A stretch of DNA of 61,214 nucleotides. It comes from Promethearchaeota archaeon (GTDB taxonomy: Archaea > Asgardarchaeota > Lokiarchaeia > Sigyniarchaeales > SOKP01). Positions 23,106 to 49,124 of the stretch are shown here, one piece after another. The translations under genes were made by a program, and so were the position numbers. Within the stretch, counting starts at the first letter, position 1. Every line of letters begins with the position of its first letter. The stretch covers positions 1 to 61,214 of the forward strand of contig JBHLNF010000016.1 of the NCBI GenBank assembly GCA_048937405.1, given 5' to 3'. The notes beneath the pieces were generated by a model. That model saw only the letters and a program-made list of their open reading frames with translations, was not told the DNA's origin and did not search any database.

Positions 23106-24245
23106 ATGAAAATTATGGCTGAGAGTGATGACCAATATAAAAAAGCTGCTGAGATATTAAATAAAGCAGGAGGGGGTGGTTATCCAGTTACAAACACGAT
23201 AATTGATATATTAAAGATCAATATTAATGAACAAGATTTAGATCTTATAATGGCTTTTGAAAAAAATATATCTCAAACAATGGAACAATTAATGGAAAGT
23301 AGTGGATTATCTGAAGAACAGATATTAATGAAAGCTGATAACTTAGCAAAGAGAGGAGTGTTATTTAATCAACCAAATCGTAATGGTATCATGGTTTATC
23401 GCCTATTACCAATTGCTAGACAGTTTGAATATAACTTCATGAAAAAACTTGATAAAACCGAAGAAAATCTTCAACTTGCAAATGTATTTGAAAGGTATCA
23501 TGAAGAAAATAGAGAACTTGTTAAATCAAACATCGATAGATTTAAAACAGTATTTAAAACAAGACCTCCTATAGATAGAACAGTTCCAATTCGAGAGAAT
23601 CGGGAAACAGGAGAGGAGCTTAATATCATTGTTAATGAAGAATTAGAAGCACCTATCGAGCAAATATTACCAACCCAAAAAATTGAAGAATTAATTGAAA
23701 AATATGACGAGATTGCTGTAGGAAATTGTTTTTGTAGGCAACATAGTGAGTTTATTGGGAACCCATGTAAACAAATCGATCTTATACCAAGTTGTTTTAC
23801 TTTGGGTAAATCTGCTAGGCACACTTCAAATCATGGCTTTTCAAAATTAGTATCTAAGGAAGAAGCTCTAAAAATCTTAAAACAATGTGAAGAAGCGGGA
23901 CTAGTTCACAAAGCATATCATTTGCATGGGGATACTAACAAAGAGGAGGTAGCAGTTTGCAACTGTTGCAGTTGTTGTTGTTTAAATGCAAGAGGGTGCT
24001 TAATTTTTCCTACGGCTAATGCTACTAATTACTTAGCAGAAATAGATCCTGATTTATGTATAGGTTGCGGTACATGTATTGAAAAATGTCATAATAAAGC
24101 AATTGAATTAAATGATGATAACAAAGCTGAGAGAATAGAAGAATATTGTATCGGATGTGGTGTTTGTGCTTATTTCTGCCCTGAAAATGCGATATCTCTT
24201 ATTGAAGGGCCAAGAATCGTAAGAATATTCCCAGAAATAAAATAG
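23106..24245 (+). CDS. Cys-rich Fe-S protein (N-terminal wHTH-like region, CxCR and CNCCSCCC motifs, C-terminal 2x[4Fe-4S])
   Basis: NCFCRQH, VCNCCSCCC, CIGCGTCIEKC, CIGCGVCAYFCP. Start may be 23115. Confidence 0.85.
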   Translation: MKIMAESDDQYKKAAEILNKAGGGGYPVTNTIIDILKININEQDLDLIMAFEKNISQTMEQLMESSGLSEEQILMKADNLAKRGVLFNQPNRNGIMVYRLLPIARQFEYNFMKKLDKTEENLQLANVFERYHEENRELVKSNIDRFKTVFKTRPPIDRTVPIRENRETGEELNIIVNEELEAPIEQILPTQKIEELIEKYDEIAVGNCFCRQHSEFIGNPCKQIDLIPSCFTLGKSARHTSNHGFSKLVSKEEALKILKQCEEAGLVHKAYHLHGDTNKEEVAVCNCCSCCCLNARGCLIFPTANATNYLAEIDPDLCIGCGTCIEKCHNKAIELNDDNKAERIEEYCIGCGVCAYFCPENAISLIEGPRIVRIFPEIK

Positions 24246-24260
24246 TAAAAAAAATTATAA

Positions 24261-25565
24261 TTAAATATTTGTGTTTTCAATAATCATTGCAGTTCCCTGA
24301 CCACCACCACAGCACATAGTAGCAAGCCCATATTGAGCTTTCTTTTCTTTTAAAATTCTTGCTAAAGTACCAACAATTCTGGGACCTGTTGCTGCAATTG
24401 GATGTCCTATTGCAATACCACCACCTTTAACATTTATATCATCTAATCTGTCATCTAATCCCATCTCATGCATCCAATTAAGAGCAACAATAGCAAAGGC
24501 TTCATTAATCTCAAAATAAGATATGTCATCAGTAGTAAATCCTGCATGTTTTAATGCCATCCATGATGCAGGAACTGGCCCTCTCCCCATAACTGTAGGA
24601 TCTACAGCACCAAATCCAATAGAAACAATACGAGCTAATGGATCTAGATCATGTTTCTTTATAGCATCTTCAGACATCAATACCAAGGTTGCGGCTCCTG
24701 CATTTACAGGACATGAATTTCCCGCAGTAACCAAACCTTGCTCCGTACCAAAAGCTTCAATATATTCTTCTTTAGTCAGGAGTGGTCTATAGTATCCACC
24801 AGCCCAACCAGGAGTAGTTAATCCCCTTAAATCTTTTGTACCCTCGTATGTAGCCTTTTTTCTAATTGATGTATCATGATCGATTAATAATGGAGTATCT
24901 ATATCACCTTCTATATGTCCCATTATTGGTACTATTTCACCCTTGAAGAATCCTTCTTCTAAAGCCTTTGCGGCTAATTGATGGCTACGAACTGCAAATC
25001 TATCATTATCCTCTTTTGAAAAGATATCAACATTCATTTCATGGAGTTTTTGTGCGGTCTCTAACATTGAATACGAGCAACGGAAGTCAACAACATCATC
25101 AACAAAAAACTCATGTCCTTTCAACATGGCTGGGGATGGTTCTCTTACCGTAGGAGCTTTTGATCTTGACATAGTGGCATTATTTTTCCCTGCGGCTATT
25201 GCAACATCAGAATAGCCTAAAGCAATATTGTCATATGCTATAGAAGCAGCTGTCATTCCTGAACCACATGCTCTATCTAATGCTACAGATGATACTTTTA
25301 CTGGAAATTTCGCTAAAAATATGGGATATCGTCCTCCAAAGGTTACGTATTCATGATTAAAATGAGTAGCCCCGATATAAAACTCCTCTACATCTTCAGG
25401 TTTGACTTTACCATTTAATCGATTATCAAACATTTCTGTTAATGTTATTGCCGTTAATTCATCTGGCCGTAAATTTCCAAAAACATCTCTTGATGGCTCT
25501 CTTGGTCGAGATCTTGAAAATGGTGTTCTAATATAATCTGTAATATAAACATCTCTTAATTTCAT
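24261..25565 (-). CDS. Acetyl-CoA C-acyltransferase (thiolase), catalytic residues intact
   Basis: RTPF, DRACGSG, TAGNSCP, NEAF, GHPIAATG, CCGGGQG. Confidence 0.93.
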   Translation of the reverse strand: MKLRDVYITDYIRTPFSRSRPREPSRDVFGNLRPDELTAITLTEMFDNRLNGKVKPEDVEEFYIGATHFNHEYVTFGGRYPIFLAKFPVKVSSVALDRACGSGMTAASIAYDNIALGYSDVAIAAGKNNATMSRSKAPTVREPSPAMLKGHEFFVDDVVDFRCSYSMLETAQKLHEMNVDIFSKEDNDRFAVRSHQLAAKALEEGFFKGEIVPIMGHIEGDIDTPLLIDHDTSIRKKATYEGTKDLRGLTTPGWAGGYYRPLLTKEEYIEAFGTEQGLVTAGNSCPVNAGAATLVLMSEDAIKKHDLDPLARIVSIGFGAVDPTVMGRGPVPASWMALKHAGFTTDDISYFEINEAFAIVALNWMHEMGLDDRLDDINVKGGGIAIGHPIAATGPRIVGTLARILKEKKAQYGLATMCCGGGQGTAMIIENTNI

Positions 25566-25611
25566 TCTTTTTAAACCTCTTTTTATTATTTTAAATTTAT
25601 ATTTTATTTTA

Positions 25612-26943
25612 TTAATCTAAATTTTCAATTATCACAGCTGTTCCCTGACCACCACCACACGACATTGCAGCTAGTCCATATTTTGCATTTTTTTCCTTAA
25701 GAATTCTAGCTAATGTTGCCGTGATTCTCAGTCCTGTAGCGGATGCTGGATTACCGATTGCTATCGCGCCCCCATGAATATTCATCTTATTTTCCCAATC
25801 AATCCCTAATTTATTTGCAGCATTAAGAGCGACGATACTAAATGATTCGTTAATTTCCCAATAATCTATATCATCCACTTTTAAATTTGCATGCTTTAAA
25901 GCCATTTGGGCTGCCGGTACCACGCCTCGCCCACGTACAGTTGGATCTACACCTGCAAAACCAATCGAAACGACTTTTGACATGGGTTTTAAATTGTATT
26001 CTTTTAGTGCTTCTTTAGATGTTAACAAACAAAGTGAAGCTCCATCACTCAATGGAGCGCTATTACCCGCAGTTATAATACCTTTCTCTGTACCGAATTT
26101 TGCGATATATTCATCTTTTGTGAATACAGGATTTTTATAGCCACCTGACCATCCAGGAGTACTTATGACGGGTGAATTAACAATATTATCTAAAGTAACT
26201 GCTTTTTTAATGGATTGATCTTTTTCAATCTCAATTTCATTATTAGAATCTCCTACTATATGACCTTTAATACTCATAATCTCTTGATTGAAATATCCGT
26301 TTTCCTGAGCTTTTTCTGCTAAATTATGACTTCGTGCACTAAATTTATCCAAATCATCTTTAGTAAAAAGATCTGCTTCCTCCTCCACAAGTTTTTGTGC
26401 TGCCTGAAATAACAACCGACTAGTTTTCCAATCATATAAATCATCATTATACCATTTATTCTCTGGATCAAGCATCAGGTTATCAGGAGGAGTACCAAAT
26501 ATTTTTACTTTTCCATCATAAGTGTGTAATGGAACTCGAGTAAATTGTTCAAATCCCACAGAAACCACTACATCAGAATAACCTAATGAAATATTTGAAT
26601 ATCCAACATGTAAAGTCGTCATGGCAGAACCATCTTGTTTATCAAATACCGTTGCAGGTACATGGAAAGGAAATTTTGCCATAAATATAGGAATTCTTCC
26701 CCCATATGTACCGTGTTCATGCTGCAATAAAGAACAGCCAACCAAAAACTCACTAACATTCTCACGCTTTAGAGTACAACCCTTGTTTGGTATTCTATTA
26801 TCAAACATATCAACTAAAACATGAGCTGCGAGTTCGATGCCCCATTTCTTACTAAAAACGTCATCGTCTGGATTTAGAGGATTTGCTTGAGAAAAAGGAG
26901 TTCTTACATGGTCTACTAAATATACTTCTTTTGCATCTTTCAA
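25612..26943 (-). CDS. Thiolase-family protein with all three catalytic residues substituted
   Basis: Full-length thiolase fold, but DKQDGS (Cys>Asp), GNPASATG (His>Asn) and MSCGGGQG (Cys>Ser). Confidence 0.9.
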   Translation of the reverse strand: MKDAKEVYLVDHVRTPFSQANPLNPDDDVFSKKWGIELAAHVLVDMFDNRIPNKGCTLKRENVSEFLVGCSLLQHEHGTYGGRIPIFMAKFPFHVPATVFDKQDGSAMTTLHVGYSNISLGYSDVVVSVGFEQFTRVPLHTYDGKVKIFGTPPDNLMLDPENKWYNDDLYDWKTSRLLFQAAQKLVEEEADLFTKDDLDKFSARSHNLAEKAQENGYFNQEIMSIKGHIVGDSNNEIEIEKDQSIKKAVTLDNIVNSPVISTPGWSGGYKNPVFTKDEYIAKFGTEKGIITAGNSAPLSDGASLCLLTSKEALKEYNLKPMSKVVSIGFAGVDPTVRGRGVVPAAQMALKHANLKVDDIDYWEINESFSIVALNAANKLGIDWENKMNIHGGAIAIGNPASATGLRITATLARILKEKNAKYGLAAMSCGGGQGTAVIIENLD

Positions 26944-27084
26944 ATTTCATTTTCACTTTTTTATTGTAAATATAAAGAGTTTAATGTTGTATTATAGTGA
27001 TTGAATAAATCTTTTCAGGTTTTCAAAATTTTCCTAATTATATTTTATAAAAAAAAGAAATTTTAAGAGTATTTATTACCTAAA

Positions 27085-27927
27085 TTAATCTACAATAGCA
27101 TAAGCATTTCCCAGAACTACAGTTCCTCGCTCAGATCGTACTTGAACTATATAACGTCCGTTTTCTTTCCAACCTTCAGTAGTTAGGGCTTCTCCAGGAT
27201 AAACTTCACTCGTAAATCGTGCATTGAATTCTTTAAATCGAGAAACATCACCCTCACATAAACCATATACTATAGCACGAGTCGCATGACCATATGTGCA
27301 TAATCCATGTAGAATTGGTCGGTCAAATCTTCCACTTCTTTTTGCAAAAGTTGGATCTATATGTAAAGGGTTAAAATCACCGCTCAATCTATATATTGCT
27401 GCTTGATTTATATTAGTTTTATAAGTTATACTAAAATCAGGATCTTTACCTTCAGGAGGATCTAGTGTTTCAGCCTTTGGACCACGATCTCCCCCCCATC
27501 CACCTTCTCCAATATAGAAATGAACATATTTTGCATCAAAAATTTGTTCATCTTCCATAGAGCTTCCAGATATTTTTGTATGAATAACTGCTGCTTTTCC
27601 TTTATCAAATATATTTTCACATACTCCTTTAACCTTAATCTCTCCTTCGGAGGGAAAAGGTTTATAGAGTTTGATCATTTGTTCTCCATGAATAAAACGG
27701 GCACCATCAATTCCTTTTTTACTAAATCTTGGAAAGCCACCACCCCCAACAATGCAAGCGTAACTAGGAAAAACTTGTACACCTCCAGGATATCTTTCAT
27801 AAACAAATTGTAACTCATCGGGTTGAGCACCAATCCCTAAATTATATAAAATTACATCTTTCCAAGTATATTTACGAATTCTCTCTTCTGTTTCTTTCCC
27901 TATTATATCTAAATCTAAACTTGTCAT
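27085..27927 (-). CDS. MaoC double-hot-dog (R)-specific enoyl-CoA hydratase 2
   Basis: LYNLGIGA, HGEQ, DKGKAA, hydratase-2 motif YRLSGDFNPLHIDP, PILHGLCTYG. Confidence 0.92.
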   Translation of the reverse strand: MTSLDLDIIGKETEERIRKYTWKDVILYNLGIGAQPDELQFVYERYPGGVQVFPSYACIVGGGGFPRFSKKGIDGARFIHGEQMIKLYKPFPSEGEIKVKGVCENIFDKGKAAVIHTKISGSSMEDEQIFDAKYVHFYIGEGGWGGDRGPKAETLDPPEGKDPDFSITYKTNINQAAIYRLSGDFNPLHIDPTFAKRSGRFDRPILHGLCTYGHATRAIVYGLCEGDVSRFKEFNARFTSEVYPGEALTTEGWKENGRYIVQVRSERGTVVLGNAYAIVD

Positions 27928-28226
27928 TTTTGATCAATTTGAAATTTTAAAAATTTATAGTATATTTTTATCACGAATAATTTATTTATTATTCCATCTA
28001 AAAATATTTTCACATAAATTTTGAAATTTCTTTTATTTTTTCAATAAGGTTTGTATTACTGAAAAAAAATAAAAAAAGATGATTTTTTAAGAGATCACTC
28101 GATTATAGTAAAAACTTCACTAAGTATGATTGTTTTATCTTTTCATATTTGGTTAATATATCAATTCTTATTTGGTATTCTATTGTTAAACATTAGCAGG
28201 TTAAAATAAAAAATAAGATATGAATA

Positions 28227-30128
28227 TTATTTTCCTCCTATTGTCTTCACTTGATTTTTAAGATCTTCTAAATCTTTTTCTAACATTTCAATTTTTCTTT
28301 CAGCTACTTTTAGTCCCATAGTCAATCGGTCAATCTTACCTTGTTCTTTATCATGAAGATCAATTTGACGCTTTAATTTCTTAATATAAGTATAAAGGTC
28401 TTCACAAAATTTAGTAAATTGTTCTTCCTCCCTAAAGTCACATTCAATTCCTAATTCACGATTTAAACCAATTTTAGAAAGGTCTTCCCAACCAAGTTCT
28501 TTTGCTTTTACAGGAATTACTTGCACATTATATTCTCTAGACAATTTTAATTCATATTGACAATCAACAGAATTAACAGAATTTGATGTTGCAATAAAAA
28601 GTACTATTTGTGAATCAGGAATATTCTTATCCATAAATCCATCAATATTTCCACTTAAATCACGTTCACAAATATAGGCGATATTAACTTCTAATTGATT
28701 TTCTAAAAATAGACTTAATTCATTTAAACGACAGGGTTCATAATCAGCGACAGCATGGCTGATAAAAACATTTATCGCCATTTTCTTTTTTCCATATTCT
28801 TTTATCTCAGGAAGAGTTTTAGCTGAAATTAATTTATCATTTAATTCGAGAGGATTATTTTCAATAGTAAAATCAATTAAATTGGTCAATTTAAACACAG
28901 AATATGGTAAATAATGCAATTGGTTATTAGATAATGTTAATATTTCTAATGAGGGCAGTTTTTCTAATTTATCCGGAAATAATTTAAGATTATTATTATA
29001 TAAATTAAGCGTCCGAAGATTTGATAGACCAAAAAGTGATGCTGGAAGGGATTCTAATGCTAAGTTCCCTGTTATTATTAAAGATTCTAAATTATCTAAA
29101 TTTCCAATATTTTCTGGAAGTTGCTTTAATGAACGACAATTAGTTATCACCAATTCTTTCAAGGATGTTAATTCTGTTAAAACATCTGAGAGTGTTTCAT
29201 TTTTAGATGAACTAATAATTAAAGTTCTCAAATTTTCTAATTTTCTGAAATGTTCGGGGAATAAATTAGATACTAAAAGCTTAAGATTCTTTAGATGAAC
29301 GATAGATTGAGGAAATCCGACCATTTGCAAGGGAAGCTCAAGTTCTTCAAGGAATTTCAATTCACTAAGAAATTCAGGAATTTCCTTAATGTTAGTTTCA
29401 GATAAATTCAATTTTTTTAGATTTTTAGCTTTTGTTAGTTCTTCAGGAAAAATCTCCAGCGGATTATTATTTATTATCAAAGTTTCAAGTTTATCAATTT
29501 TTTCTGATTCTGTGCTAAATTTAGTGATTTTATTATAAGATACATCTAAATACTTTAGGTTAATCAATGGTTTTATAAATTCTACATATTCTAACATACA
29601 CTGTGATACATCAAGATATTCAATTTCGGGTAATAAATTTAACTGAAGGTAAATATCTTTAAAGTTTAATCCGTAAATTGGTTGATTTAAATCTCGCCTT
29701 GCTTTAGCCTCTGCCTCTCGTCTTTCCTCTATTGAGCGATACAATGCACGCGTAGCCTTCCAAAAATCTTCCTGTCTTCTATTTAATTCATTAATATAAT
29801 TTGCAAAGACTTTTTCCCATCCATTTAAATCCAAAGCTTTAAGCATTTTAAATTCTGATATTTTTGGCATAAATTCAGGCATCTGAATTTTTCTTTCATT
29901 TGTGCTATTAAAACTTAACCCTAATTCAATTACATGATTATCTTGCGCAACAAATCCAAATTGATGTTGTTTAAAAGTTTCTACATGATGTGTTTGTTCA
30001 TCAATTCTAAAATCATCCCATGCTATTTTTTCAATATGAGGTATCGATATTCCAAATATCTGTTCCATATATTTAAGGATTTCAACTTCTTCTTCAATCA
30101 AATCCACATTTTCATATTTTGCAATCAT
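28227..30128 (-). CDS. Leucine-rich-repeat protein with C-terminal TIR domain and coiled-coil tail
   Basis: Repeated LxxLxLxxNxL units, then NVFISHA...IVLFIATSNSVNSVDCQYEL...VIPV, then a heptad-like tail. Confidence 0.88.
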   Translation of the reverse strand: MIAKYENVDLIEEEVEILKYMEQIFGISIPHIEKIAWDDFRIDEQTHHVETFKQHQFGFVAQDNHVIELGLSFNSTNERKIQMPEFMPKISEFKMLKALDLNGWEKVFANYINELNRRQEDFWKATRALYRSIEERREAEAKARRDLNQPIYGLNFKDIYLQLNLLPEIEYLDVSQCMLEYVEFIKPLINLKYLDVSYNKITKFSTESEKIDKLETLIINNNPLEIFPEELTKAKNLKKLNLSETNIKEIPEFLSELKFLEELELPLQMVGFPQSIVHLKNLKLLVSNLFPEHFRKLENLRTLIISSSKNETLSDVLTELTSLKELVITNCRSLKQLPENIGNLDNLESLIITGNLALESLPASLFGLSNLRTLNLYNNNLKLFPDKLEKLPSLEILTLSNNQLHYLPYSVFKLTNLIDFTIENNPLELNDKLISAKTLPEIKEYGKKKMAINVFISHAVADYEPCRLNELSLFLENQLEVNIAYICERDLSGNIDGFMDKNIPDSQIVLFIATSNSVNSVDCQYELKLSREYNVQVIPVKAKELGWEDLSKIGLNRELGIECDFREEEQFTKFCEDLYTYIKKLKRQIDLHDKEQGKIDRLTMGLKVAERKIEMLEKDLEDLKNQVKTIGGK

Positions 30129-30377
30129 TTATATTACTCTTTTTAAAGAAGATTGTTTTCGGATTAAATTATATTAATTAAAACATAATATTTAAAAACA
30201 TACTATTTAGCAACCTATTTTATATTTTTATGATAAAAGAATTGAAATGTATTCGAAAGGGGAATTTAAACTGCTAAAGAGGCATTCCAAACTTTGAAAT
30301 TATTATAGGTTCTTATTATATCAATAAAATATATTTTACAATAGGAAAAAAATAAAAAAAACTTGATTTTTAAAGAA

Positions 30378-31220
30378 CTAGTCGATTATAGCATAAGCAT
30401 TTCCTAGAACTACATTCCCTCGCTCAGATCGTACTTGAATTATATAGCGTCCATTATCTTTCCAACCTTCGGTGGTTAGGGTTTCTCCAGGAAATACAAC
30501 ACCTTTAAATCTTGCACTGAATTCTTTAAAGCGAGTAACATCACCTTCACATAGTTCATTTACAATAGCACGTGTTGCAATCCCGTATGTGCATAAACCA
30601 TGAAGGATTGGTTTTGGTTGACCTGCCATTTTAGCAAAATTTGGATCTATATGTAATGGATTAAAATCTCCATTTAATCTATAAAATGCTGCTTGATTTG
30701 AACTGGTCTGAAAGGAACTACTAAAAACTGGTTCTACATTCTCGGGAGGATTTAAGGGCACACTTTTTGGTCCTGGATCCCCGCCGAAACCTCCTGAACC
30801 AGCAACGAAATATACATATCTAGAATCAAATAAATGCTCGCCTTCTAGTGAATGACCGGTTATTTTTATATGTATGACAGCAGCTTTACCTTTATCGTAT
30901 ATATGTTCTATTATCCCTTTTGTGTTTATTTTTCCATTTGGTTTAAAAGGTGTATAAAGATGGATTAATTGCTCACCATGTAATAAACGAACAAAATTAA
31001 CTCCTGGTGGGAAAATCATTCCGCTACTTGCTGCTATCGTTGCAAAACTCGGAAACACTTTCATACCACCTTGTGCCCTCTCAAAAACAAAAGATAAATC
31101 TTCTGCTTGTGCACCAACACATAAATTATACAAGGCACTATCTTTCCAAGTATACTCAAATGTTCCCTCTCTTGTCTGTCCTGCTGAATTTACATCTAAA
31201 TCAGGCATTTCTAATTTCAC
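30378..31220 (-). CDS. MaoC double-hot-dog (R)-specific enoyl-CoA hydratase 2, second copy
   Basis: LLHGEQ, YRLNGDFNPLHIDP, PILHGLCTYG. GTG start. Confidence 0.92.
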   Translation of the reverse strand: MKLEMPDLDVNSAGQTREGTFEYTWKDSALYNLCVGAQAEDLSFVFERAQGGMKVFPSFATIAASSGMIFPPGVNFVRLLHGEQLIHLYTPFKPNGKINTKGIIEHIYDKGKAAVIHIKITGHSLEGEHLFDSRYVYFVAGSGGFGGDPGPKSVPLNPPENVEPVFSSSFQTSSNQAAFYRLNGDFNPLHIDPNFAKMAGQPKPILHGLCTYGIATRAIVNELCEGDVTRFKEFSARFKGVVFPGETLTTEGWKDNGRYIIQVRSERGNVVLGNAYAIID

Positions 31221-31444
31221 TTATTTTTATAAATTGATTTTTAATTGTACTAATAAATATAGATTCAATTAAAAATGATTACAGTTAATAAAAATTTTAA
31301 AAGAAAAAATAATTTGCTGTATAACTTAAATTGATCTTCTAAATGTATTATAAAATCACTCTAAGTAATGTTTATATTAAAAAATATAAAATTATAAAAA
31401 AAAGAATAGTATTTTGTTTATTTCAAATGATAAAAAATATAGTT

Positions 31445-32725: not shown

Positions 32726-32812
32726 TTTTTTTTCACTTTTTTTAAATTTGATTTTTAATGAAAAATTTAGTACTACAGTTTAAAATTAAAAATAATATTT
32801 TAAGAATTTTAA

Positions 32813-32846
32813 AATAACATATCAACTTTATAAACTTGATGTTATT
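32813..32846. promoter_or_regulatory. Imperfect inverted repeat centred on TTTATAAA (possible operator over a TATA box)
   Basis: AATAACAT(AT)CAAC-TTTATAAA-CTTGATGTTATT, about 100 nt upstream of the thiolase start at 32725. Confidence 0.4.
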
Positions 32847-33042: not shown

Positions 33043-33075
33043 TTATAATCTCTAATAATTAACTCTTGCCTGTAT

Positions 33076-39684: not shown

Positions 39685-40148
39685 CTTAAAATCAACCTTC
39701 CATTTTATTATAAACTGAATCTTAACTATAAATATGCATGATGTTTAAAGACTTTTTATGTAATGAGTTAATGAAAGTTTAATTGCTATTTACCCTATTT
39801 GTTGGAGAGAAATAAGAGAAGATTAAGAAAAATTACTTATTATTCATATCATGGTTTTCTTCTCTCATATATCATATAGCAATTTATTCCCATAAAAATA
39901 TAAAACTTCTCTCAATGATCTACAACAAATTCAGATTATCTTGTTTTCAACGGAGAATTTTATGAGAATATTTTGCATAGAAAATATCGCCTTTAATACT
40001 AGTGATAATATATATCAATAGATTTTCAAATTAATCTTATATTATTTGATACTTCTTTTTAACCTTTTCACAATTCTTTTCCAAGATTTTTTAATTTATT
40101 GTGTATAGTTATAACTTAAATTTACATAACAAATTAGAGTTGATATAA

Positions 40149-41390: not shown

Positions 41391-42422
41391 ATGATAGAAA
41401 CAAATATAACAAAAATGTTTGGGATTAAATATCCAATATTAAGTGCCCCAATGGGACCATTTTTTACTCGAGATTTAGCACTTGCAGTAAGTGAAGCTGG
41501 CGGCTTGGGGGTATTATCAAATGTAAATATAGTGGGAACAGATCCAGTTGAGGAACATAAAAGAAGCTTGGAATATATGATTGAACATACAGATAAACCA
41601 TTTGGGCTTAATATTCTTACTTCTCGTAATAATAGAGGAGTCCAAGAAATGGTAACAGAATTACCAAAAATAGTTATGGACAATCCAAAAATGAGAGACC
41701 AGTGTTTGTATTGGTTAACTTCGGCAGGATCTTCAAAGTTTCTTCCCGCCTCTAAATCATTCCAAGAATTAAGAAAAAATTCCAATGTTAAACACTTTCA
41801 TGTATCACCCGCTGTGTGGTTAGCACAGAAATGTATAGATGCTGGAGTGGATGGGGTAGTAGTAACTGGTGGAGAAGGAGGAGGTCATCAATCCTATGAA
41901 AAGGTTTCAACATTAGTATTACTACAACAGATTAATAAAACGTTTCCTGATTTACCCAAAATAGCATGTGGGGGATTTGCAACAGGAGAAGCACTATCAG
42001 CAGCATTATCTTTAGGAGCAGGAGCCATCGCTATGGGATCTAGATTTATTGCTTCAAAACAAAGTGAATTTCATGAAAAGTATAAGGCTTTAATTCCACC
42101 AGGAAAACCTCAAGATACAGGACTCTACACCGGTTCATTTGGTCCTATCCGTTTATATAGAAATAAATACGCTATTGCACATCCAGCACCCGGCTCTAAA
42201 GAGGAGATGATAGCTTATGAGCAATCTATACCCCCAGAGGTAAAAGCTTTAGATTCAGGGGCTTATGATAGAGTTTATAACGGAGATACTGAAACTGGTG
42301 CGGTATTACTAGGTCAATCAATTGGTATTATTGATAGTATTGATGATGTTTCTGAAATTATTGAAAGAATAATGAAAGAGGCAGAAAAAGCAATTAAAAA
42401 TAACTATTCTATGTTGAAATAA
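41391..42422 (+). CDS. FabK/nitronate monooxygenase-family FMN oxidoreductase, copy 1
   Basis: IKYPILSAPM, AVSEAGGLG, TDKPFG, GGEGGGH, ACGGF, MGSRF, GQSIG. Confidence 0.9.
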   Translation: MIETNITKMFGIKYPILSAPMGPFFTRDLALAVSEAGGLGVLSNVNIVGTDPVEEHKRSLEYMIEHTDKPFGLNILTSRNNRGVQEMVTELPKIVMDNPKMRDQCLYWLTSAGSSKFLPASKSFQELRKNSNVKHFHVSPAVWLAQKCIDAGVDGVVVTGGEGGGHQSYEKVSTLVLLQQINKTFPDLPKIACGGFATGEALSAALSLGAGAIAMGSRFIASKQSEFHEKYKALIPPGKPQDTGLYTGSFGPIRLYRNKYAIAHPAPGSKEEMIAYEQSIPPEVKALDSGAYDRVYNGDTETGAVLLGQSIGIIDSIDDVSEIIERIMKEAEKAIKNNYSMLK

Positions 42423-42736: not shown

Positions 42737-43450
42737 ATGGTTGAAAAATCCTCTAAAATGTCTGAAACATCTGTTAAAAGAAGAACTCGATGTCGTTCTC
42801 CCGAAAAAAAAGCTGCTCAATTTGAAGAAATTTTAGAAGCAGGAAAAAAGTTATTTGAAGAAAGGGGAAGAGACGGTTTCAGTTTGCGAGCTTTGGCTAA
42901 ATCTCTTGGAATGAATCAAAATAATTTATATAATTATGTGGAAAGTAAACGAGAGTTATATATAGCCATCAGAAATAAGTATTTTAAGCAATATCGAGAA
43001 GAAAATTTAGATATAATCAATGATCACAAGAGCTCCTCTTTTGAGCTTCTAATGAAGTTATTTAATCACTTTTTAAAGTTTGCTGAAAGAGATTTTGGTG
43101 CATTTCGCATGATGCATCTTAGGCAATCTCCTCCTTCTGATAAGATAGGTCCTATTGAGAAGGAATATCGTGAATTTAGACTTTTAACAGGTACAAATAA
43201 ATTAATAAGAAAAACGATTCAAGAAGGGGATATTATTAATACTAATGATGAAATGCTTACTTTTTTTGTTTATAGTGTTGTTTTGGGTGCTGCTATGATA
43301 GAACGTCATATGAGAGAAATGCTAAAAATTAGTATGAAAGGAGATTTTGCAAGTGAACTCATACAATTTGGAGATACTAATTTTTCAACAGAAGAATTTC
43401 GAAATTTTGTTTTAGAAAATCTAGAATTTATTCTACGTGAAAAAACATAA
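42737..43450 (+). CDS. TetR/AcrR-family transcriptional regulator
   Basis: ILEAGKKLFEERGRDGFSLRALAKSLGMNQNNLYNYVESKREL helix-turn-helix. Confidence 0.9.
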   Translation: MVEKSSKMSETSVKRRTRCRSPEKKAAQFEEILEAGKKLFEERGRDGFSLRALAKSLGMNQNNLYNYVESKRELYIAIRNKYFKQYREENLDIINDHKSSSFELLMKLFNHFLKFAERDFGAFRMMHLRQSPPSDKIGPIEKEYREFRLLTGTNKLIRKTIQEGDIINTNDEMLTFFVYSVVLGAAMIERHMREMLKISMKGDFASELIQFGDTNFSTEEFRNFVLENLEFILREKT

Positions 43451-43523: not shown

Positions 43524-44468
43524 ATGGGAATGTTAGATGGAAAAGTTGCATTAATTACTGGGGCTGGACGAGGTGTAGGTCGTGAGGAAGCACTTGCAAT
43601 GGCAAAAGAGGGTTGCAACTTAGTAATTAATGATATTGGTGGAGGCTCCGATCATTTAACAAAGGATTCTAAAATTGCGGATAGTGTAGTTGAAGAATGC
43701 AAAAGCCTTGGAGTAAAAGCAATAGCAAACTATGACTCTGTTGTAGATTATAACAAAGCAAAAGCTATGTTAGAGCAAGCAATTTCTGAATTTGGGAAAT
43801 TAGATATTATTGTCAATAATGCTGGTATATTAAGGGATAGAATGATTTTCAATATGACAGAAGAAGAATTTGATGCTGTAATCGCAGTTCATTTAAAGGG
43901 AACCTTTAATCTTACTAAACATGCAGCAGTTTATTTCAGAACATTAGGAAAAGAAAACCCAAATTTAAAAAATTTTGGTAGAATTATAAATACCGCATCT
44001 GATTCTGGTCTATATGGTAATCCAGGTCAATCAAATTATGGTGCTGCCAAATCAGGTATTGCAACTTTCAGTGTTATAGTGTCAAGGGAACTTGCAAAAT
44101 ATGCAACTGTGAATTGCGTTGTACCGAGTGCCAGAACCCGTATGACTACAGATTTAACTCCTAAAATGACCGGATATATGAGTACAAAAACTAAAGATGG
44201 ATTTGATGTTTTTCACCCTTCACACTTTGCACCATTAGTTGTTTTTTTAGCATCTGATGCAGCCAGTAATATTAATGGAGAAATATTTAAAGCAATTGGA
44301 GATAAAGTATGGGTATATCGTGGTTGGCGGGCTGTAAAGAAAATTTCAAATAATTGGAAAACGTTTACACCCCAACAATTAGCTGAACGTGTTGAATCAG
44401 AATTAATGACAGATTTACCATCGAAAAGAGAAGGAGCAGCAACTAAAGAAGATTTATTTAATTTATAG
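43524..44468 (+). CDS. SDR oxidoreductase, MFE-2/HSD17B4-type (R)-3-hydroxyacyl-CoA dehydrogenase-like
   Basis: TGAGRGVG, VINDIGG, NNAGILRD, VHLKG, GRIINTAS, GQSNYGAAK. Confidence 0.88.
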   Translation: MGMLDGKVALITGAGRGVGREEALAMAKEGCNLVINDIGGGSDHLTKDSKIADSVVEECKSLGVKAIANYDSVVDYNKAKAMLEQAISEFGKLDIIVNNAGILRDRMIFNMTEEEFDAVIAVHLKGTFNLTKHAAVYFRTLGKENPNLKNFGRIINTASDSGLYGNPGQSNYGAAKSGIATFSVIVSRELAKYATVNCVVPSARTRMTTDLTPKMTGYMSTKTKDGFDVFHPSHFAPLVVFLASDAASNINGEIFKAIGDKVWVYRGWRAVKKISNNWKTFTPQQLAERVESELMTDLPSKREGAATKEDLFNL

Positions 44469-44475
44469 ATTTAAA

Positions 44476-45267
44476 GTGATTATTTTAACAGAATATATTT
44501 TAACCAAAACAGAAGACAGAGTTTTTCATATAATTTTAAACAGACCTAGTAAAAAGAATGCATTAACAAGAGCAATGTATAAAGGTTTGGCTGATGCATT
44601 AGAAGCCGCAGAAACGGATAAAAATGTTATGGTAATACTAATGTATGGTAATGGAGATTCGTTTTGTGCAGGAAATGATTTAAAAGATTTTCAAGATGTA
44701 AAGTATATAACTGGAGCTAAAACTGAGGAAAGACCCGCAGTGGCTCTTTCAAAATGGTTATTGGGGGCTAAAAAGCCAGTAATTGTAGCTATACACGGTT
44801 ATGCAGTAGGTATTGGAAGTACAATGCCATTGAATTGTGATTTAATTTATGCATCAGAAGATGCTAAATTTCAATTTCCTTTTACAAGCCTAGGTTTAAT
44901 ACCTGAATTTGGATCAACATTTATTCTTCCAGAATTAGTAGGAAAATTTCGAGCAGCTGAGTTATTTTTTTTAGGTGATTTCTTTACTGCTGAAGAGGCA
45001 GTTAAAATAGGAATGGTAAATAAAATTTTCCCAAAAGAGGAACTGATTGAGAAAGTAACAAATATTGCTAAATCACTAGCAGAAAAACCACCAAAAGCAT
45101 TGAGATCAACAAAAGAATTAATAAATAAATATCACAAAAGTATTTTGGAAAATCTAAAGCAAGAAGAATCCATGGAATTTAGAAGAAGATTAGTATCACC
45201 AGAAGCGCAAGAAGCATTTTCTGCTTTTTTTGCTAAAAGAAAGCCTGATTTCTCACAATTTGATTAA
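44476..45267 (+). CDS. Crotonase-family protein, probably delta3,delta2-enoyl-CoA isomerase type
   Basis: NRPSKKNAL, FCAGNDL, AVGIGST, PFTSLGLIPEFGS. Lacks the hydratase GGGxE glutamate and has the ECI2-like PExGS. Confidence 0.85.
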   Translation: MIILTEYILTKTEDRVFHIILNRPSKKNALTRAMYKGLADALEAAETDKNVMVILMYGNGDSFCAGNDLKDFQDVKYITGAKTEERPAVALSKWLLGAKKPVIVAIHGYAVGIGSTMPLNCDLIYASEDAKFQFPFTSLGLIPEFGSTFILPELVGKFRAAELFFLGDFFTAEEAVKIGMVNKIFPKEELIEKVTNIAKSLAEKPPKALRSTKELINKYHKSILENLKQEESMEFRRRLVSPEAQEAFSAFFAKRKPDFSQFD

Positions 45268-45387: not shown

Positions 45388-46530
45388 ATGACGGAAATAT
45401 TAGATCAAGAAACATATGAGAAATATGAAGAAGCAGCAAAAATAATCAATAAAGCAGGACGCACATCTTATCCTATAAATGATACGTTAATTATGATTTT
45501 AAGACACGTCATTCCTGATGAAAAGGACCTCAAATTAATAAAACTCTTTGAAAATAAGAACTCGCAAACATTAGAACAACTACAAGAAATTAGCAATCTA
45601 TCTGAAGAAGAAATAATAAAAAATGCTGAGAATTTAGCTAAAAAAGGAGTAATCTTTGATCAACCAAGTAGGACTGGCCTTAAAGTATATAGATTGATGC
45701 CTTTCATTAATGTGGGTATTTTTGAATATACTTTCATGGGAAAATTAGAGGATACTAAGGAAAACAGAGAATTAGCAAAACTATATGTCAAATTAGGATC
45801 AAATTTGAGAAGTAGAATAATGCAAAATTATGAAGCACTTTTGATTCGTCAGAAGAAAAGACCACCTGTAGATAGGACAATACCTTTCACCATAAATAAA
45901 GATACTGGAACTGAAATAGAAATTATAGTAGATAAATCAATAGAAGTCCCTGAAGAAAAAATTCTTCCTGTTCAGAAAGTAGAAGAACTTATTAAAAAAT
46001 TTGATGATATTGCTGTTGGTCATTGTTTCTGCCGGCATCAGCATGATTTATTAGGAGATCCATGCAAACAAACTTATATAAGAGAAAATTGTTTTACATT
46101 TGGAAAATCTGCTCGATATACTTCGGACCACGGATTTAGTAGAAAAATTTCAAAAGAAGAAGCTTTGGATATAATAAGACGATCAAATGAGGATGGATTA
46201 GTTAATAAAGCCTATCATCCGAATTTTGACATCACTAAAGATGAAACAAGTTTGTGTATGTGTTGCAATTGTTGTTGCGGTCAAACACGAGGTTTTAATG
46301 TCAATCAAACAAATCATATAGCCATAATTGATCAAGAATTATGTAATGGGTGTGGTATTTGCGTTGAAAAATGTCATACTGGAACAATGCAATTAAATGA
46401 TGATAATATTGCCTATAATGGAGATCTCTGTATTGGTTGCGGCGTTTGTGCATATTTCTGTCCCGAGCAAGCGATATCTTTAAAAGAAAAGGAAAGAATT
46501 GTTCGCTTTACTCCACCTCGAGTACAATAA
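45388..46530 (+). CDS. Cys-rich Fe-S protein, paralogue of 23106..24245
   Basis: HCFCRHQH, LCMCCNCCC, CNGCGICVEKC, CIGCGVCAYFCP. Confidence 0.85.
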   Translation: MTEILDQETYEKYEEAAKIINKAGRTSYPINDTLIMILRHVIPDEKDLKLIKLFENKNSQTLEQLQEISNLSEEEIIKNAENLAKKGVIFDQPSRTGLKVYRLMPFINVGIFEYTFMGKLEDTKENRELAKLYVKLGSNLRSRIMQNYEALLIRQKKRPPVDRTIPFTINKDTGTEIEIIVDKSIEVPEEKILPVQKVEELIKKFDDIAVGHCFCRHQHDLLGDPCKQTYIRENCFTFGKSARYTSDHGFSRKISKEEALDIIRRSNEDGLVNKAYHPNFDITKDETSLCMCCNCCCGQTRGFNVNQTNHIAIIDQELCNGCGICVEKCHTGTMQLNDDNIAYNGDLCIGCGVCAYFCPEQAISLKEKERIVRFTPPRVQ

Positions 46531-46646
46531 TCATGTATGACTTTTTTTTTTCTAATAATTTGAATCATATTCTCTAACTTTATTATGACTCCTAAATTGA
46601 TTTAAAGTAACAATAAAAAAATTCAAAAATTAAAATTGTGTTTAAA

Positions 46647-47744
46647 ATGGTTTTGGAAACAAATATAACAAAAATGCTAGGAATTAAACATCCTATTGTT
46701 GGTGCTCCTATGGGCCCCTTCTACACAACTGATATGTGTGTAGCTATTTCTGAAGCAGGAGGTTTGGGTATATTATCCCACACTACTATTGCACGAGGAC
46801 AAGAAATTGGAAATGAACCAAGAAAAGATCGAGTCTCGACTGATGCTCTTGGACCAATGAAAAAAAATATGGAGTATGTTGTTGAACATACAGATAAACC
46901 ATTTGGATTTAATATAAGGACCTCTAGAAATGAAGTACAGGCTCCAACACTCTGTAGAGAAATACCAAAATTTATTATGGAGAATCAAAGAATTAGAGAA
47001 CAGTGTGTATATGCTCTCACAAGTGCAGGATCTTCTAAAACATTACCTCAAAGTAAAACTTGGCAAGAACTAAAAGAAAAATCTGAAATTAAACATTTTC
47101 ATGTAGCCCCTGCGTTATGGCTTGCAGACAAATGTGTTGCTTCTGAAGTGGATGGTATGGTCGTAACTGGTGGAGAAGGTGGAGGACATCAATCATTTGA
47201 AAAAGTAAGCACTCTTGTCTTACTTCAGCAGGTTCATCAAAAATATCCTGATTTTCCCGTAATTGCATGCGGAGGATTTGCAACTGGAGCGGGTTTAGCT
47301 GCTGCATTATCAATGGGTGCTGGAGGTATAGCTATGGGTTCTCGTTTTATTGCTAGCAAAGAAAGCGAATTCCATGAGAATTATAAAAATGTTGTACCTC
47401 CTTCAAAAGCTCAAGATACAATATATACTGCAGGAGTGTTAGGACCAATTAGATTATGGAAGAATGAGTATAGTCTCCATCATGCAGCAGTAAATTCAAA
47501 GGAGGAACTCATGGCACATGAACAGCAACTCAGATCACTCCCGCCTGAAGAATTTATAAAACAGGCTCTTGAAACTTCAAATGCCTATCTTGCTGCTTAT
47601 AGAGGAGATATAAATTCTGGAGCAGTACTACTAGGACAAAGTATCGGTATTATTGAGAGTATTGAGAGTGTATCAGATATAGTCATTAATATAGTATCTG
47701 ATGCAGAAACATTGTTGAAAAGCGCAGCAGGTAAGATTAAATAA
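46647..47744 (+). CDS. FabK/nitronate monooxygenase-family FMN oxidoreductase, copy 2
   Basis: Same motifs as copy 1. The ATG at 46647 is chosen by alignment with the paralogues. Confidence 0.9.
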   Translation: MVLETNITKMLGIKHPIVGAPMGPFYTTDMCVAISEAGGLGILSHTTIARGQEIGNEPRKDRVSTDALGPMKKNMEYVVEHTDKPFGFNIRTSRNEVQAPTLCREIPKFIMENQRIREQCVYALTSAGSSKTLPQSKTWQELKEKSEIKHFHVAPALWLADKCVASEVDGMVVTGGEGGGHQSFEKVSTLVLLQQVHQKYPDFPVIACGGFATGAGLAAALSMGAGGIAMGSRFIASKESEFHENYKNVVPPSKAQDTIYTAGVLGPIRLWKNEYSLHHAAVNSKEELMAHEQQLRSLPPEEFIKQALETSNAYLAAYRGDINSGAVLLGQSIGIIESIESVSDIVINIVSDAETLLKSAAGKIK

Positions 47745-47831
47745 ATTATTTATTTACAATGACTTTTTTTTTGTAATTCTTTTTATTTTCAATAAGTAAT
47801 TTCAATTAATTAAAAGGGATCACTCTTTGTT

Positions 47832-47963
47832 TATAACGGAGATCTCTGTATTGGTTGTGGAGTTTGTGCATATTTTTGTCCCGAACAAGCGATATCCTTA
47901 AAAGAAAACGATAGGATTGTTCGCTTTTTTCCTCCCAAAGATAATAAAAATTCTAATAATTGA
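47832..47963 (+). pseudogene. 3' remnant of a third Cys-rich Fe-S protein gene
   Basis: Encodes YNGDLCIGCGVCAYFCPEQAISLKENDRIVRFFPP, nearly identical to 46414-46530. In-frame TAA at 47811 and no start codon. Confidence 0.88.
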
Positions 47964-48071
47964 AATTCTTCCTATCATTTTGGATACTATTTCTTTAACT
48001 TTATTTTGTCTACTAAATTTAACTAAAGTAACTAATAAAAAAAAAAATGAATAAAAGAAATAGTGATTATA

Positions 48072-49124
48072 ATGGTTTTAGAAACAAATATAACAAAAAT
48101 GCTAGGAATTAAACATCCTATTGTTGCTGCCCCTATGGGTCCATTTTATACAACTGAACTAACAATTGCAGTATCAGAGGCAGGAGGTTTAGGTGTATTA
48201 AGTCATAGTGCTTTGATAAGTGATGTTTTAGCCAATAAATCCCCTGTGGCGATAATGAAAGAAAATATGCTTAAAGTAGTAGAGCACACAGATAAACCTT
48301 TTGGTTTCAATATTAGGACTTCTCGTAGAGAAGCTGCCGCTATAGAACTTGTTAGAGATATTCCCAAATTCATTAGAGAAACTCCAAGAGTAAGAGAGCA
48401 GTGTGTATATGCTATTACTAGTGCTGGATCTTCAAAAACGCTACCTCAATCAAAACAATACCAAAAATTAAAAGAAAGTGGTTCAAATATCAAACATTTT
48501 CATGTAGCTCCAGCATTATGGCTAGCAGAAAAATGTGTTGCCTCAAAGGTAGATGGAATGGTAGTAACTGGTGGAGAAGGAGGAGGTCATCAATCTTATG
48601 AAAAGGTTAGTAGCTTGGTCTTACTTCAACAAGTATTACAACAACATCCTGATTTTCCAGTGATCGCATGTGGAGGATTTGCTACTGGTAACGGACTTGC
48701 TGCTGCTTTAGCTTTGGGAGCGGGAGCTATTGCAATGGGATCTAGATTTATTGCCTCTCATGAAAGTGAATTTCATGAAACATATAAAAATGTTGTACCC
48801 CCTGCAAAAGCACAAGATACAGTATTGGTCACCGGAGCATTAGGACCAATTAGGCTTTGGAAAAATGATTATTCATTACATCATGGACTTGTAACAAGTA
48901 AGGAAGAAAAAATGGCAGAGGAAGCAGCATTTACCCAAGAAGATATAATTAATGAAGGTAAGGCATATGAAGCAGCATACAAGGGTGATATTAATTCTGG
49001 AGCTGTTTTATTAGGGCAGAGTATAGGAATAATAAACAATTTAAAGAATGTTAAGGATATTGTCGATTCAATTGTTCAAGATGCAGAACATCTTTTGAAG
49101 AAAGCCAATGCATCAATTAAATAA
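48072..49124 (+). CDS. FabK/nitronate monooxygenase-family FMN oxidoreductase, copy 3
   Basis: Same motifs; MVLETNITKMLGIKHPIV is identical to copy 2. Confidence 0.9.
   Translation: MVLETNITKMLGIKHPIVAAPMGPFYTTELTIAVSEAGGLGVLSHSALISDVLANKSPVAIMKENMLKVVEHTDKPFGFNIRTSRREAAAIELVRDIPKFIRETPRVREQCVYAITSAGSSKTLPQSKQYQKLKESGSNIKHFHVAPALWLAEKCVASKVDGMVVTGGEGGGHQSYEKVSSLVLLQQVLQQHPDFPVIACGGFATGNGLAAALALGAGAIAMGSRFIASHESEFHETYKNVVPPAKAQDTVLVTGALGPIRLWKNDYSLHHGLVTSKEEKMAEEAAFTQEDIINEGKAYEAAYKGDINSGAVLLGQSIGIINNLKNVKDIVDSIVQDAEHLLKKANASIK

Follow-up and report, generated by a model that had tools for sequence, protein, structure and literature searches.

A conserved, TetR-associated acyl-CoA gene cluster with FabK-clade flavoproteins in a Promethearchaeota genome

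Which protein interconverts enoyl-CoA and acyl-CoA in a gene cluster that encodes the other steps of an acyl-CoA cycle is the question raised by a 26-kb island (positions 23106-49124) in a 61,214-nt stretch of Promethearchaeota DNA, the window, which forms contig C2 of a genome of 4.47 Mb in 29 contigs (~29-31% GC, completeness by marker genes 100%). An initial annotation had recognized thiolases, (R)- and (S)-type hydratases and dehydrogenases, an isomerase, a TetR regulator, three flavoproteins of the FabK/nitronate monooxygenase (NMO) type and Cys-rich Fe-S genes, and no acyl-CoA dehydrogenase (ACAD), electron-transfer flavoprotein (ETF), acyl carrier protein (ACP) or FabB/F/H, and it had proposed either an ACP-independent fatty-acid synthesis on CoA thioesters or a beta-oxidation with a new ferredoxin-linked dehydrogenase. 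The gene classes were called by Pfam, which finds all of them at the places given, and further calls were made by NCBIfam and by sequence matching against the PDB. In Pfam profile searches, neither ACAD (PF00441) and ETF (PF01012) nor the PP-binding and KAS profiles had a match on contig C2; both absences thus hold for the contig, but they do not extend to the genome, which carries nine ACAD genes, two EtfAB pairs and a megasynthase with ACP and ketosynthase (KS) domains. The cluster itself is real, conserved and unusual, and its gene content marks it as a predicted lineage-conserved, TetR-associated supercluster for CoA-thioester metabolism. The key step is provisionally assigned by position and family only, and the reading that we favor, tentatively and at somewhat short of even confidence, is that the FabK-clade NMO proteins perform the enoyl-/acyl-CoA step on CoA thioesters.

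FabK-clade flavoproteins in a conserved gene cluster

Conservation was analyzed in a scan of species-representative genomes with an NMO, which gave 423 related loci; the best 80, from 66 assemblies, were used, and their neighbors were counted by tblastn with the island proteins and with the ACAD and Etf proteins of the genome itself. All named loci among the 80 are Asgard with the exception of one short Thermoplasmata contig, and several are labeled "uncultured archaeon" only; the homologs of the window proteins carry the names Promethearchaeota, Lokiarchaeota and other Asgard metagenome-assembled genomes. A recurrent order was found, in which minus-strand genes for a thiolase and a crotonase-type enoyl-CoA hydratase (ECH) are followed by a plus-strand gene for a metallo-beta-lactamase-fold hydrolase (MBL) where present, by minus-strand dmsB and dmsA, and then by plus-strand genes for a 3-hydroxyacyl-CoA dehydrogenase (HCDH), an NMO and TetR. 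This order often continues with a second DmsA-DmsB pair, a paralog of the 4-hydroxybutyryl-CoA dehydratase AbfD, another NMO and hyp351, a protein of no known family. More than 20 species-level assemblies retain the core of thiolase-ECH, DmsBA and HCDH-NMO-TetR. HCDH lies within 10 kb of the NMO in 28 of the 80 loci and within 1.5 kb in 17, and TetR in 21 and 19; the respective counts are 23 and 4 for DmsA, 22 and 5 for ECH, 12 and 6 for the short-chain dehydrogenase/reductase (SDR), and 9 and 2 for the thiolase, as opposed to 3 and 0 for ACAD and 0 and 0 for Etf. The Cys-rich protein, counted at 40% identity or more, reaches only 5 and 1. The expected synteny is thus borne out for the core, with ACAD and ETF almost never near, and not for the Fe-S proteins, whose link is weak. 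Loci that are rearranged (L020, L066, L073, L087 and L090) still group NMO, TetR, SDR, HCDH, ECH and DmsAB, and when the neighborhood is viewed from the Fe-S protein on three contigs of Promethearchaeota, Hodarchaeota and Thorarchaeota, the neighbors include NMO, MBL, TetR, SDR, HCDH, ECH and the molybdenum (Mo) enzyme. hyp351 is found within 10 kb of an NMO in eight assemblies, across which it is 53-84% identical, and its AlphaFold2 model has a pLDDT of 46.5, which is not sufficient for a classification.

The three NMO proteins are 58-70% identical to each other and match PF03060 at 137-150 bits. Their GGEGGGH motif, of which the His was claimed to be retained, is invariant in all three, and the catalytic GGH is invariant also in an alignment of 26 sequences. 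The proposed FabK affinity is confirmed by the PDB, where the closest matches are FabKs (E 1e-31 to 1e-38), followed by the NADH:quinone reductase PA1024 and then by class I NMOs. The best NCBIfam model is likewise FabK (TIGR03151), with 172.5, 153.3 and 178.6 bits against an equivalog cut-off of 453, and we therefore regard the three as predicted FabK-clade proteins that are yet not FabK. A kinship to Helicobacter pylori FabX, which had also been brought up, did not hold. There are three conserved Cys residues, which are scattered and do not form a four-Cys [4Fe-4S] motif, and the 2-nitropropane-dioxygenase entries 7e1q and 9lt5, in our reading H. pylori FabX, reach no better than E 1e-5 to 1e-7; the missing motif and the weak matches rule out a FabX-like Fe-S flavoenzyme. 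The first NMO gene, nmo1, starts 66 nt after hcdh, and its orthologs are 74-95% identical across Asgard metagenome-assembled genomes. A literature search with "Asgard" and either "FabK" or "nitronate monooxygenase" found nothing relevant on such proteins in Asgard acyl-CoA clusters.

Partner enzymes of the cluster

Omitted from the initial annotation were the conserved DmsAB-type Mo enzyme and AbfD, the latter lying just outside its coordinates, ~3 kb upstream of the island. AbfD has the Fe-S ligands C99, C103, H291 and C298, and its PDB match 1u8v is an enzyme of the ACAD fold with FAD and a [4Fe-4S] cluster. It is clearly a bona fide predicted 4-hydroxybutyryl-CoA dehydratase, which would supply crotonyl-CoA. 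An AbfD ortholog lies beside the cluster also in locus L048, and paralogs with 37-41% identity to the window AbfD adjoin NMOs in ten relatives (L031, L039, L041, L083, L044, L022, L090, L094, L056 and L025), in several of them between the second DmsAB pair and the NMO-hyp351 pair. Further paralogs are encoded in the genome itself (C26:63915-65372 and C22:15612-17042), and the [4Fe-4S] ligands are kept in all paralogs that were checked, which were those of five of the ten relatives and the two own-genome copies.

The thiolases of the island are FadA/PhaA-like according to PDB and NCBIfam, which rules out an SCP2-type identity; thl1 reaches 325 bits with TIGR01930 (cut-off 240) and matches 1ulq and 1wdk in the PDB. 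The catalytic Cys/His/Cys residues are kept in thl1, thl3 and thl4. The fourth thiolase, thl2, is full length and has the nucleophilic Cys replaced by Asp, the His of the GHP motif by Asn and the acid/base Cys by Ser, and it may be a pseudo-enzyme partner of the intact thiolase encoded 46 nt away. A DUF35 partner for these thiolases is not encoded in the window, and the DUF35 matches of the genome are on C15, C19 and C7 only; one on C7 has an ECH-SDR-ACAD group close by. Among solved structures, the closest relative of the MaoC hydratase is hydratase 2 of the human multifunctional enzyme type 2 (MFE-2; 1s9c, E 4e-60), with the GDFNPLH motif present in maoC1, and that of the SDR is the (3R)-hydroxyacyl-CoA dehydrogenase of yeast MFE-2 (2et6, E 4e-87). 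As both proteins best match MFE-2 domains, the island encodes a split peroxisome-type (R)-route beside the (S)-route of ECH1 and HCDH. In contrast to peroxisomal MFE-2 (HSD17B4/Fox2), the two domains are encoded here by one gene each, an SCP2 domain and an acyl-CoA oxidase are missing, and the host is anaerobic. Both Glu residues that are canonical for crotonase hydratases are present in ECH1 and absent from ECH2, which is therefore likely isomerase-like.

The initial annotation had regarded the Cys-rich Fe-S genes as partners of the flavoproteins. Three Fe-S genes indeed exist, but the one annotated here as dmsB encodes the partner of the adjacent Mo subunit, with no specific tie to the FabK-like genes, and the linkage of the Cys-rich family to NMOs is weak. 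The dmsB gene overlaps the stop codon of dmsA. The DmsB-type protein scores 181.2 bits against an equivalog cut-off of 214.1, and the DmsA-type protein 504.6 against 777.7, the latter for the 639-residue open reading frame (ORF) without its N-terminal extension. With the hidden N-terminus included, the protein is 758 residues long and carries the FS0 motif CCHDCGGRC, and its closest PDB matches are trimethylamine N-oxide (TMAO) and dimethyl sulfoxide (DMSO) reductases of the TorA/DorA/DMSO reductase group (E 1e-79 to 1e-73). As in E. coli DmsABC and TorA-type enzymes, a Mo-bis(pyranopterin guanine dinucleotide) (Mo-bisPGD) subunit with FS0 motif is combined with a four-cluster DmsB-type subunit. 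Unlike in these enzymes, the genes are set within acyl-CoA gene clusters, no twin-arginine (Tat) signal was detected in the DmsA-like N-terminus, and no DmsC (PF04976) or NrfD (PF03916) anchor was matched anywhere in the genome, which is scored 100% complete. Since anchor and Tat signal are missing, the enzyme has to be soluble and cytoplasmic. At the dmsA start (39697-39699, minus strand), eight orthologs have ATG at one aligned position, which reads AAG in the window and in two close relatives and ATA or ACG in other relatives, and this suggests that the gene may use near-cognate initiation. Elsewhere in the genome, a third Mo-oxidoreductase/Fer4_11 pair without an anchor is the immediate neighbor of an ACAD-EtfB-EtfA module (C6:19103-24674; L102:5128-11065), so that Mo enzymes accompany acyl-CoA redox genes more than once.

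The two remaining Fe-S proteins, XFer4_a and XFer4_b, are 52% identical to each other and have about 12 paralogs in the genome. The family has more than 2,000 database matches, and among the best 120 with a source name all are from Promethearchaeota, Hodarchaeota or Thorarchaeota. An AlphaFold2 model (pLDDT 82) has three parts, which are an N-terminal winged helix, a Cys-rich middle with the motifs CFCR...C...C and CxCCxCCCG, and a 2x[4Fe-4S] ferredoxin tail. A VIA-align comparison of this model gave matches only to the winged helix (MarR/ArsR-like, Z ~8) and to ferredoxin domains, and Foldseek returned no full-length fold match in the PDB. In the ESM Atlas, the first 305 residues are matched by clusters from bacteria that are labeled "Fe-S binding" (TM 0.76-0.79), and some of these are fused to GltD-like NAD(P)H/FAD modules. 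The winged helix would fit a redox-sensing regulator and the GltD-type fusions an electron carrier, and on the basis of the model XFer4_a and XFer4_b could be either redox-sensing regulators or soluble electron carriers.

The redox step between enoyl-CoA and acyl-CoA

In the recurrent core, one thiolase, one crotonase, one HCDH and one FabK-clade protein are associated with TetR as in butyrate or beta-oxidation operons, and this composition puts the NMO in the place of Bcd-Etf, ACAD or Ter. We propose that the FabK-clade proteins take this C2=C3 redox slot of Bcd-EtfAB, ACAD or Ter, that they would act in the direction of enoyl-CoA reduction with NAD(P)H, and that the outcome would be either the formation of butyryl- or acyl-CoA as a fermentative electron sink or a chain elongation from crotonyl-CoA and acetyl-CoA. 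The remote ACAD and ACAD-EtfAB genes could then serve an oxidative or bifurcating route that uses the thiolases and hydratases of the island. Reduction is the most likely direction because the potential of the enoyl/acyl-CoA couple lies far above that of NAD(P)H and because FabKs are NAD(P)H-linked, and it is also favored by the nearby AbfD as a source of crotonyl-CoA. The arrangement resembles the clostridial thl-hbd-crt-bcd-etfBA and Ter systems, in which thiolase, (S)-dehydrogenase and crotonase are clustered with one enoyl/acyl-CoA enzyme, here in an AbfD crotonyl-CoA context. It differs from them in its Asgard host, in having a FabK-clade FMN TIM-barrel as the fourth enzyme instead of Bcd-EtfAB or Ter, and in the addition of the MFE-2-type (R)-route, the DmsAB-type Mo enzyme, the MBL hydrolase and poly-Fe-S proteins. 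There are precedents for such a use of FabK relatives. FabK itself is routinely assayed with crotonyl-CoA and NADH (PMC11091888), and the island proteins share with it (2z6i, 5gvh, 7l00, 4iql) the NMO/TIM-barrel FMN fold, the GGH motif and the best sequence match, but they stay far under the equivalog cut-off, are not set in an ACP/FabD/FabF/FabG operon, and have seven close paralogs in the genome. IpdC (Rv3553), a FabK homolog of Mycobacterium and Rhodococcus, acts on a CoA thioester within the TetR (KstR2) regulon together with SDR, crotonase and thiolase, and it is proposed to work in the desaturating, oxidative direction (PMC5380842). The order hcdh-nmo1-tetR-sdr-ech2 matches this type of context, and the likeness is one of context; IpdC differs in that its substrate is a bicyclic steroid-derived CoA ester and that its hosts are aerobic actinobacteria with many ACADs (FadE) nearby.

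Several observations weigh against this assignment. As the scores are far under the FabK equivalog cut-off, the substrate of the NMOs is not transferable by homology, and family members can be plain NADH:acceptor reductases, as exemplified by PA1024, which ranks directly behind the FabKs among the PDB matches. In the genome, four of seven close NMO paralogs lie outside an acyl-CoA context, with neighbors such as a tRNA endonuclease, GNAT, HisIE and a PEMT-like protein, and about half of the 80 NMO loci have no island family nearby, so that the NMO family is clearly not tied to a single pathway. In eukaryotes, enzymes of the MFE-2 type work in catabolism, contrary to a purely reductive direction. 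Finally, ACADs are plentiful both in this genome and across the phylum, and therefore no gap needs to be filled.

This last point leads to a reading in which the island serves ordinary beta-oxidation, with dehydrogenation in trans by the remote ACAD and ACAD-EtfAB proteins, and in which the NMOs are accessory, as NADH:acceptor oxidoreductases or as ene-reductases for unusual double bonds. We consider it somewhat unlikely. Its proteins are at hand, as the remote ACAD and Etf genes lie on C6, C7, C25 and C28, with two ACAD-EtfBA modules on C6. Of 151 Asgard genomes sampled, 138 have an ACAD, as do all 29 genomes of the host's own family. A cluster of three ACADs on C28 has no hydratase or dehydrogenase (ECH, HCDH) and no thiolase nearby, and four of the five bacterial-type thiolases of the genome are in the island, which makes a cooperation in trans plausible; the many NMO paralogs outside lipid contexts and the catabolic role of eukaryotic MFE-2 would fit as well. 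The tight and conserved hcdh-nmo1-tetR unit beside thiolase and ECH, in contrast, puts the NMO in the usual place of the fourth enzyme, and ACAD is rarely within 10 kb (3 of 80 loci). A complementary phyletic distribution of ACAD and NMO was ruled out, as ACAD is near-universal in the phylum. The initial annotation had itself allowed that co-regulated ACAD and ETF genes elsewhere might account for the step; nine ACADs and two ACAD-EtfAB modules do exist, and this result concerns their presence rather than their co-regulation. The ferredoxin-linked acyl-CoA dehydrogenase that it had suggested is thermodynamically implausible, given established potentials of about -10 mV for enoyl/acyl-CoA and about -420 mV for ferredoxin. 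A coupling of acyl-CoA oxidation to S- or N-oxide reduction is, unlike that to ferredoxin, thermodynamically not implausible, as DMSO (about +160 mV) or TMAO (about +130 mV) could be reduced. In such a quinone-independent chain, NMOs would act as IpdC-like acyl-CoA dehydrogenases that pass electrons via soluble Fe-S proteins (XFer4, DmsB) to the cytoplasmic DmsAB-type reductase, and DMSO or TMAO reduction would pull beta-oxidation without a membrane respiratory chain. An oxidative chain is conceivable in that MFE-2-type enzymes are catabolic and the high-potential-type DmsAB is conserved. It would agree with the frequent proximity of DmsA (23 of 80 loci within 10 kb, often as two pairs, and kept through rearrangements), with the closest relatives of DmsA, with the need of a reductase without anchor and Tat signal for a soluble partner, with the oxidative direction proposed for IpdC, and with an electron-transfer role of XFer4-like cores that are fused to GltD-type modules in bacteria. 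But XFer4 is near the NMO in 5 of 80 loci only, its MarR/ArsR-like N-terminus fits a regulator, the NMOs themselves lack an Fe-S site, and characterized FabKs use NAD(P)H directly, and we thus judge this chain to be distinctly unlikely. Its complete form, a soluble and quinone-free Asgard beta-oxidation from FabK-clade dehydrogenation via the winged-helix/poly-Fe-S proteins to the anchor-less DmsAB with DMSO or TMAO as the sink, seems improbable to us.

An ACP-independent de novo fatty-acid synthesis on CoA, as a variant of the Sulfolobus system made of thiolase, MFE-2-type SDR, MaoC and FabK-like reductase, is very improbable in our view, although the four chemical steps are encoded and the (R)-specific SDR and MaoC correspond to those of S. 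acidocaldarius. The FadR-regulated S. acidocaldarius cluster (PMC6449355), taken together with its CoA-based pathway, is likewise archaeal, TetR-linked and ACP-free, and it too combines a ketoacyl-CoA reductase of the SDR type with a dehydratase of the MaoC type. The known archaeal pathway, however, consists of KT/DUF35, SDR, MaoC and an enoyl-CoA reductase of the medium-chain dehydrogenase/reductase (MDR) family (bioRxiv 10.1101/2024.07.05.601840). The island has no DUF35, its thiolases are of the bacterial type, its hydratase is an MFE-2-type double hot-dog protein, and no ADH_N or ADH_zinc_N domain, which would indicate an MDR reductase, was found by Pfam among the island proteins. The need for such a route is further weakened by a single ORF of ~3,300-3,500 aa on C22 (~23,998-33,972, minus strand; L100:9999-19973), which combines, in this order, an NMO-type enoyl reductase (ER), KS, acyltransferase, three tandem ACPs, ketoreductase, a polyketide-synthase-type dehydratase and a phosphopantetheinyl transferase. 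After it come an alpha/beta hydrolase and, as parts of an acetyl-CoA carboxylase, a biotin carboxyl carrier and a divergent biotin carboxylase. All PP-binding and KAS matches of the genome are within the megasynthase ORF, which by its domains is predicted to be a type I fatty-acid synthase or polyunsaturated-fatty-acid-synthase-like megasynthase in an Asgard genome, and with it a predicted ACP-dependent route exists. Also against a fatty-acid synthesis on CoA, cultured Loki-type archaea have been reported with isoprenoid ether lipids. The cluster might also be dedicated to the catabolism of specific unusual substrates, such as 4-substituted butyrates, alkyl or sterol-like sulfate esters, or branched or alicyclic acids, with AbfD-like radical enzymes, the MBL hydrolase, the Mo enzyme and the NMOs all working on CoA esters specific to the pathway, similar to the KstR/KstR2 regulons of actinobacteria. 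The recurrence of the MBL/alkylsulfatase-like gene in the cluster and beside another NMO, the AbfD paralogs between DmsB2 and NMO in relatives (ten reported), and a resemblance to steroid-type clusters in the dead/active thiolase pair, the MFE-2-type enzymes and TetR with NMO would speak for it. We find it improbable nevertheless, as a marker gene for a particular substrate was not found, the island encodes neither a CoA ligase nor a CoA transferase, and the enzymes are generic family members under equivalog cut-offs.

If the NMOs are indeed the enoyl-/acyl-CoA redox enzymes, they would represent a third, undescribed solution to this thermodynamically awkward step, beside ACAD/ETF and MDR/Ter, in the closest archaeal relatives of eukaryotes, and this solution would be combined with peroxisome-like MFE-2 enzymes. 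This would bear on the fermentation or elongation of short acyl chains by Asgard archaea in sediments, on the question, linked to the "lipid divide", of whether they can synthesize fatty acids, and on where the beta-oxidation enzymes of eukaryotes came from. That DmsAB-type molybdoenzymes without an anchor are conserved in these clusters lends itself to direct testing.

Mosaic structure and gene inventory

The island is a mosaic and not a single operon (Table 1), as beyond the enzymes of the cycle it contains an LRR-TIR gene, the MBL/alkylsulfatase-like gene, the DmsAB-type molybdoenzyme and two gene remnants. Part of the local gene enrichment is, judged from sequence identities, explained by tandem duplication (thl3/thl4 70%, maoC1/maoC2 61% and nmo2/nmo3 70% identical), and the MaoC and XFer4 remnants indicate that [thl-maoC] and [Fe-S-NMO] units were duplicated in tandem. 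The clustering is far beyond chance, with four of five bacterial-type thiolases, both MFE-2-type hydratases and three of the seven close NMO paralogs of a 4.47-Mb genome within 26 kb. The flanks are typically archaeal and fermentative, with 2-oxoacid:ferredoxin oxidoreductases, an HdrA-MvhD fusion, a subunit of an ADP-forming acetyl-CoA synthetase and IF-2B.

Table 1. Predicted genes and gene remnants of the island and its immediate neighbors (positions in the window).
Feature	Position	Strand	Basis or remark
AbfD, 4-hydroxybutyryl-CoA dehydratase / vinylacetyl-CoA isomerase	18416-19861	-	PDB 1u8v, E 4e-200
950-aa ORF without Pfam family	19984-22836		between AbfD and island
XFer4_a, winged-helix-like N-terminus, Cys-rich middle, 2x[4Fe-4S] tail	23106-24245	+	Pfam Fer4 at C-terminus only
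thl1, active thiolase, bacterial FadA/acetoacetyl-CoA thiolase type	24261-25565	-	Pfam, NCBIfam TIGR01930, PDB
thl2, catalytically dead thiolase	25612-26943	-	alignment
maoC1, MFE-2-type (R)-specific enoyl-CoA hydratase 2, double hot-dog	27085-27927	-	Pfam, PDB 1s9c, motif
LRR-TIR protein	28227-30128	-	Pfam LRR and TIR_2
maoC2, MFE-2-type hydratase 2	30378-31220	-	Pfam; 61% identical to maoC1
thl3, active thiolase	31445-32725	-	Pfam, NCBIfam, catalytic residues
MaoC N-terminus remnant	32848-33051	-	tblastn, 63% identity over 65 aa
thl4, active thiolase	33076-34371	-	Pfam, catalytic residues; 70% identical to thl3
ECH1, crotonase, true hydratase	34488-35315	-	Pfam; motifs GGGFE and FPE
MBL-fold hydrolase with alkyl-sulfatase dimerisation domain	35507-36739	+	Pfam
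DmsB-type four-cluster Fe-S subunit	36842-37411	-	Pfam Fer4_11; NCBIfam DmsB, 181 bits
DmsA-type Mo-bisPGD catalytic subunit, FS0 motif	37408-39699	-	Pfam; PDB TorA/DorA/DMSO reductases
hcdh, (S)-3-hydroxyacyl-/3-hydroxybutyryl-CoA dehydrogenase (3HCDH)	40149-41324	+	Pfam, NCBIfam
nmo1, FabK-clade NMO flavoprotein	41391-42422	+	Pfam, NCBIfam, PDB, motif
TetR-family regulator	42737-43450	+	Pfam
SDR, MFE-2-type (3R)-hydroxyacyl-CoA dehydrogenase	43524-44468	+	PDB 2et6, E 4e-87; also 1gz6, 1zbq
ECH2, crotonase superfamily, isomerase-like	44476-45267	+	Pfam, sequence
XFer4_b, winged-helix-like N-terminus, Cys-rich middle, 2x[4Fe-4S]	45388-46530	+	107 nt upstream of nmo2
nmo2, FabK-clade NMO flavoprotein	46638-47744	+	Pfam, NCBIfam, PDB, motif
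XFer4 3' end remnant	47826-47939	+	tblastn, 84% identity over 38 aa
nmo3, FabK-clade NMO flavoprotein	48063-49124	+	Pfam, NCBIfam, PDB, motif
hyp351, 351-aa protein of no known family	49338-50393	+	no Pfam/NCBIfam match; after nmo3-type genes

As to regulation, a search of 16 intergenic regions for shared 12-mers and perfect palindromes gave no TetR operator, and what was found lies within a coding remnant. Upstream of hcdh and tetR, phylogenetic footprinting brought out only AT-rich promoter-like blocks (TGTATA-N-TTATA ... TTAAAT), which are too weak for scanning a genome of 29% GC. Among sequencing runs, the segment 40149-49124 was found in DNA metagenomes of sediments only, with no RNA run listed.

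Some features of the surroundings recur elsewhere. The MBL gene is found repeatedly within the conserved cluster of relatives, and on C28 a close NMO paralog has a second MBL and alkyl-sulfatase-dimerisation protein encoded 320 nt downstream (C28:69815-72530; L105:9815-12530), so that the NMO-MBL pairing recurs outside the island. In the relative with locus L048, only ~1.6 kb lie between the matches to AbfD and to the Cys-rich protein, and the 950-aa ORF, to which no search gave a match in that relative, may be absent there. The LRR-TIR gene, which separates maoC1 from maoC2, is probably an unrelated insertion; LRR-TIR genes adjoin an NMO or MaoC gene twice in the genome, once here and once at C7:722628-728328, beside the NMO at 727327-728328.

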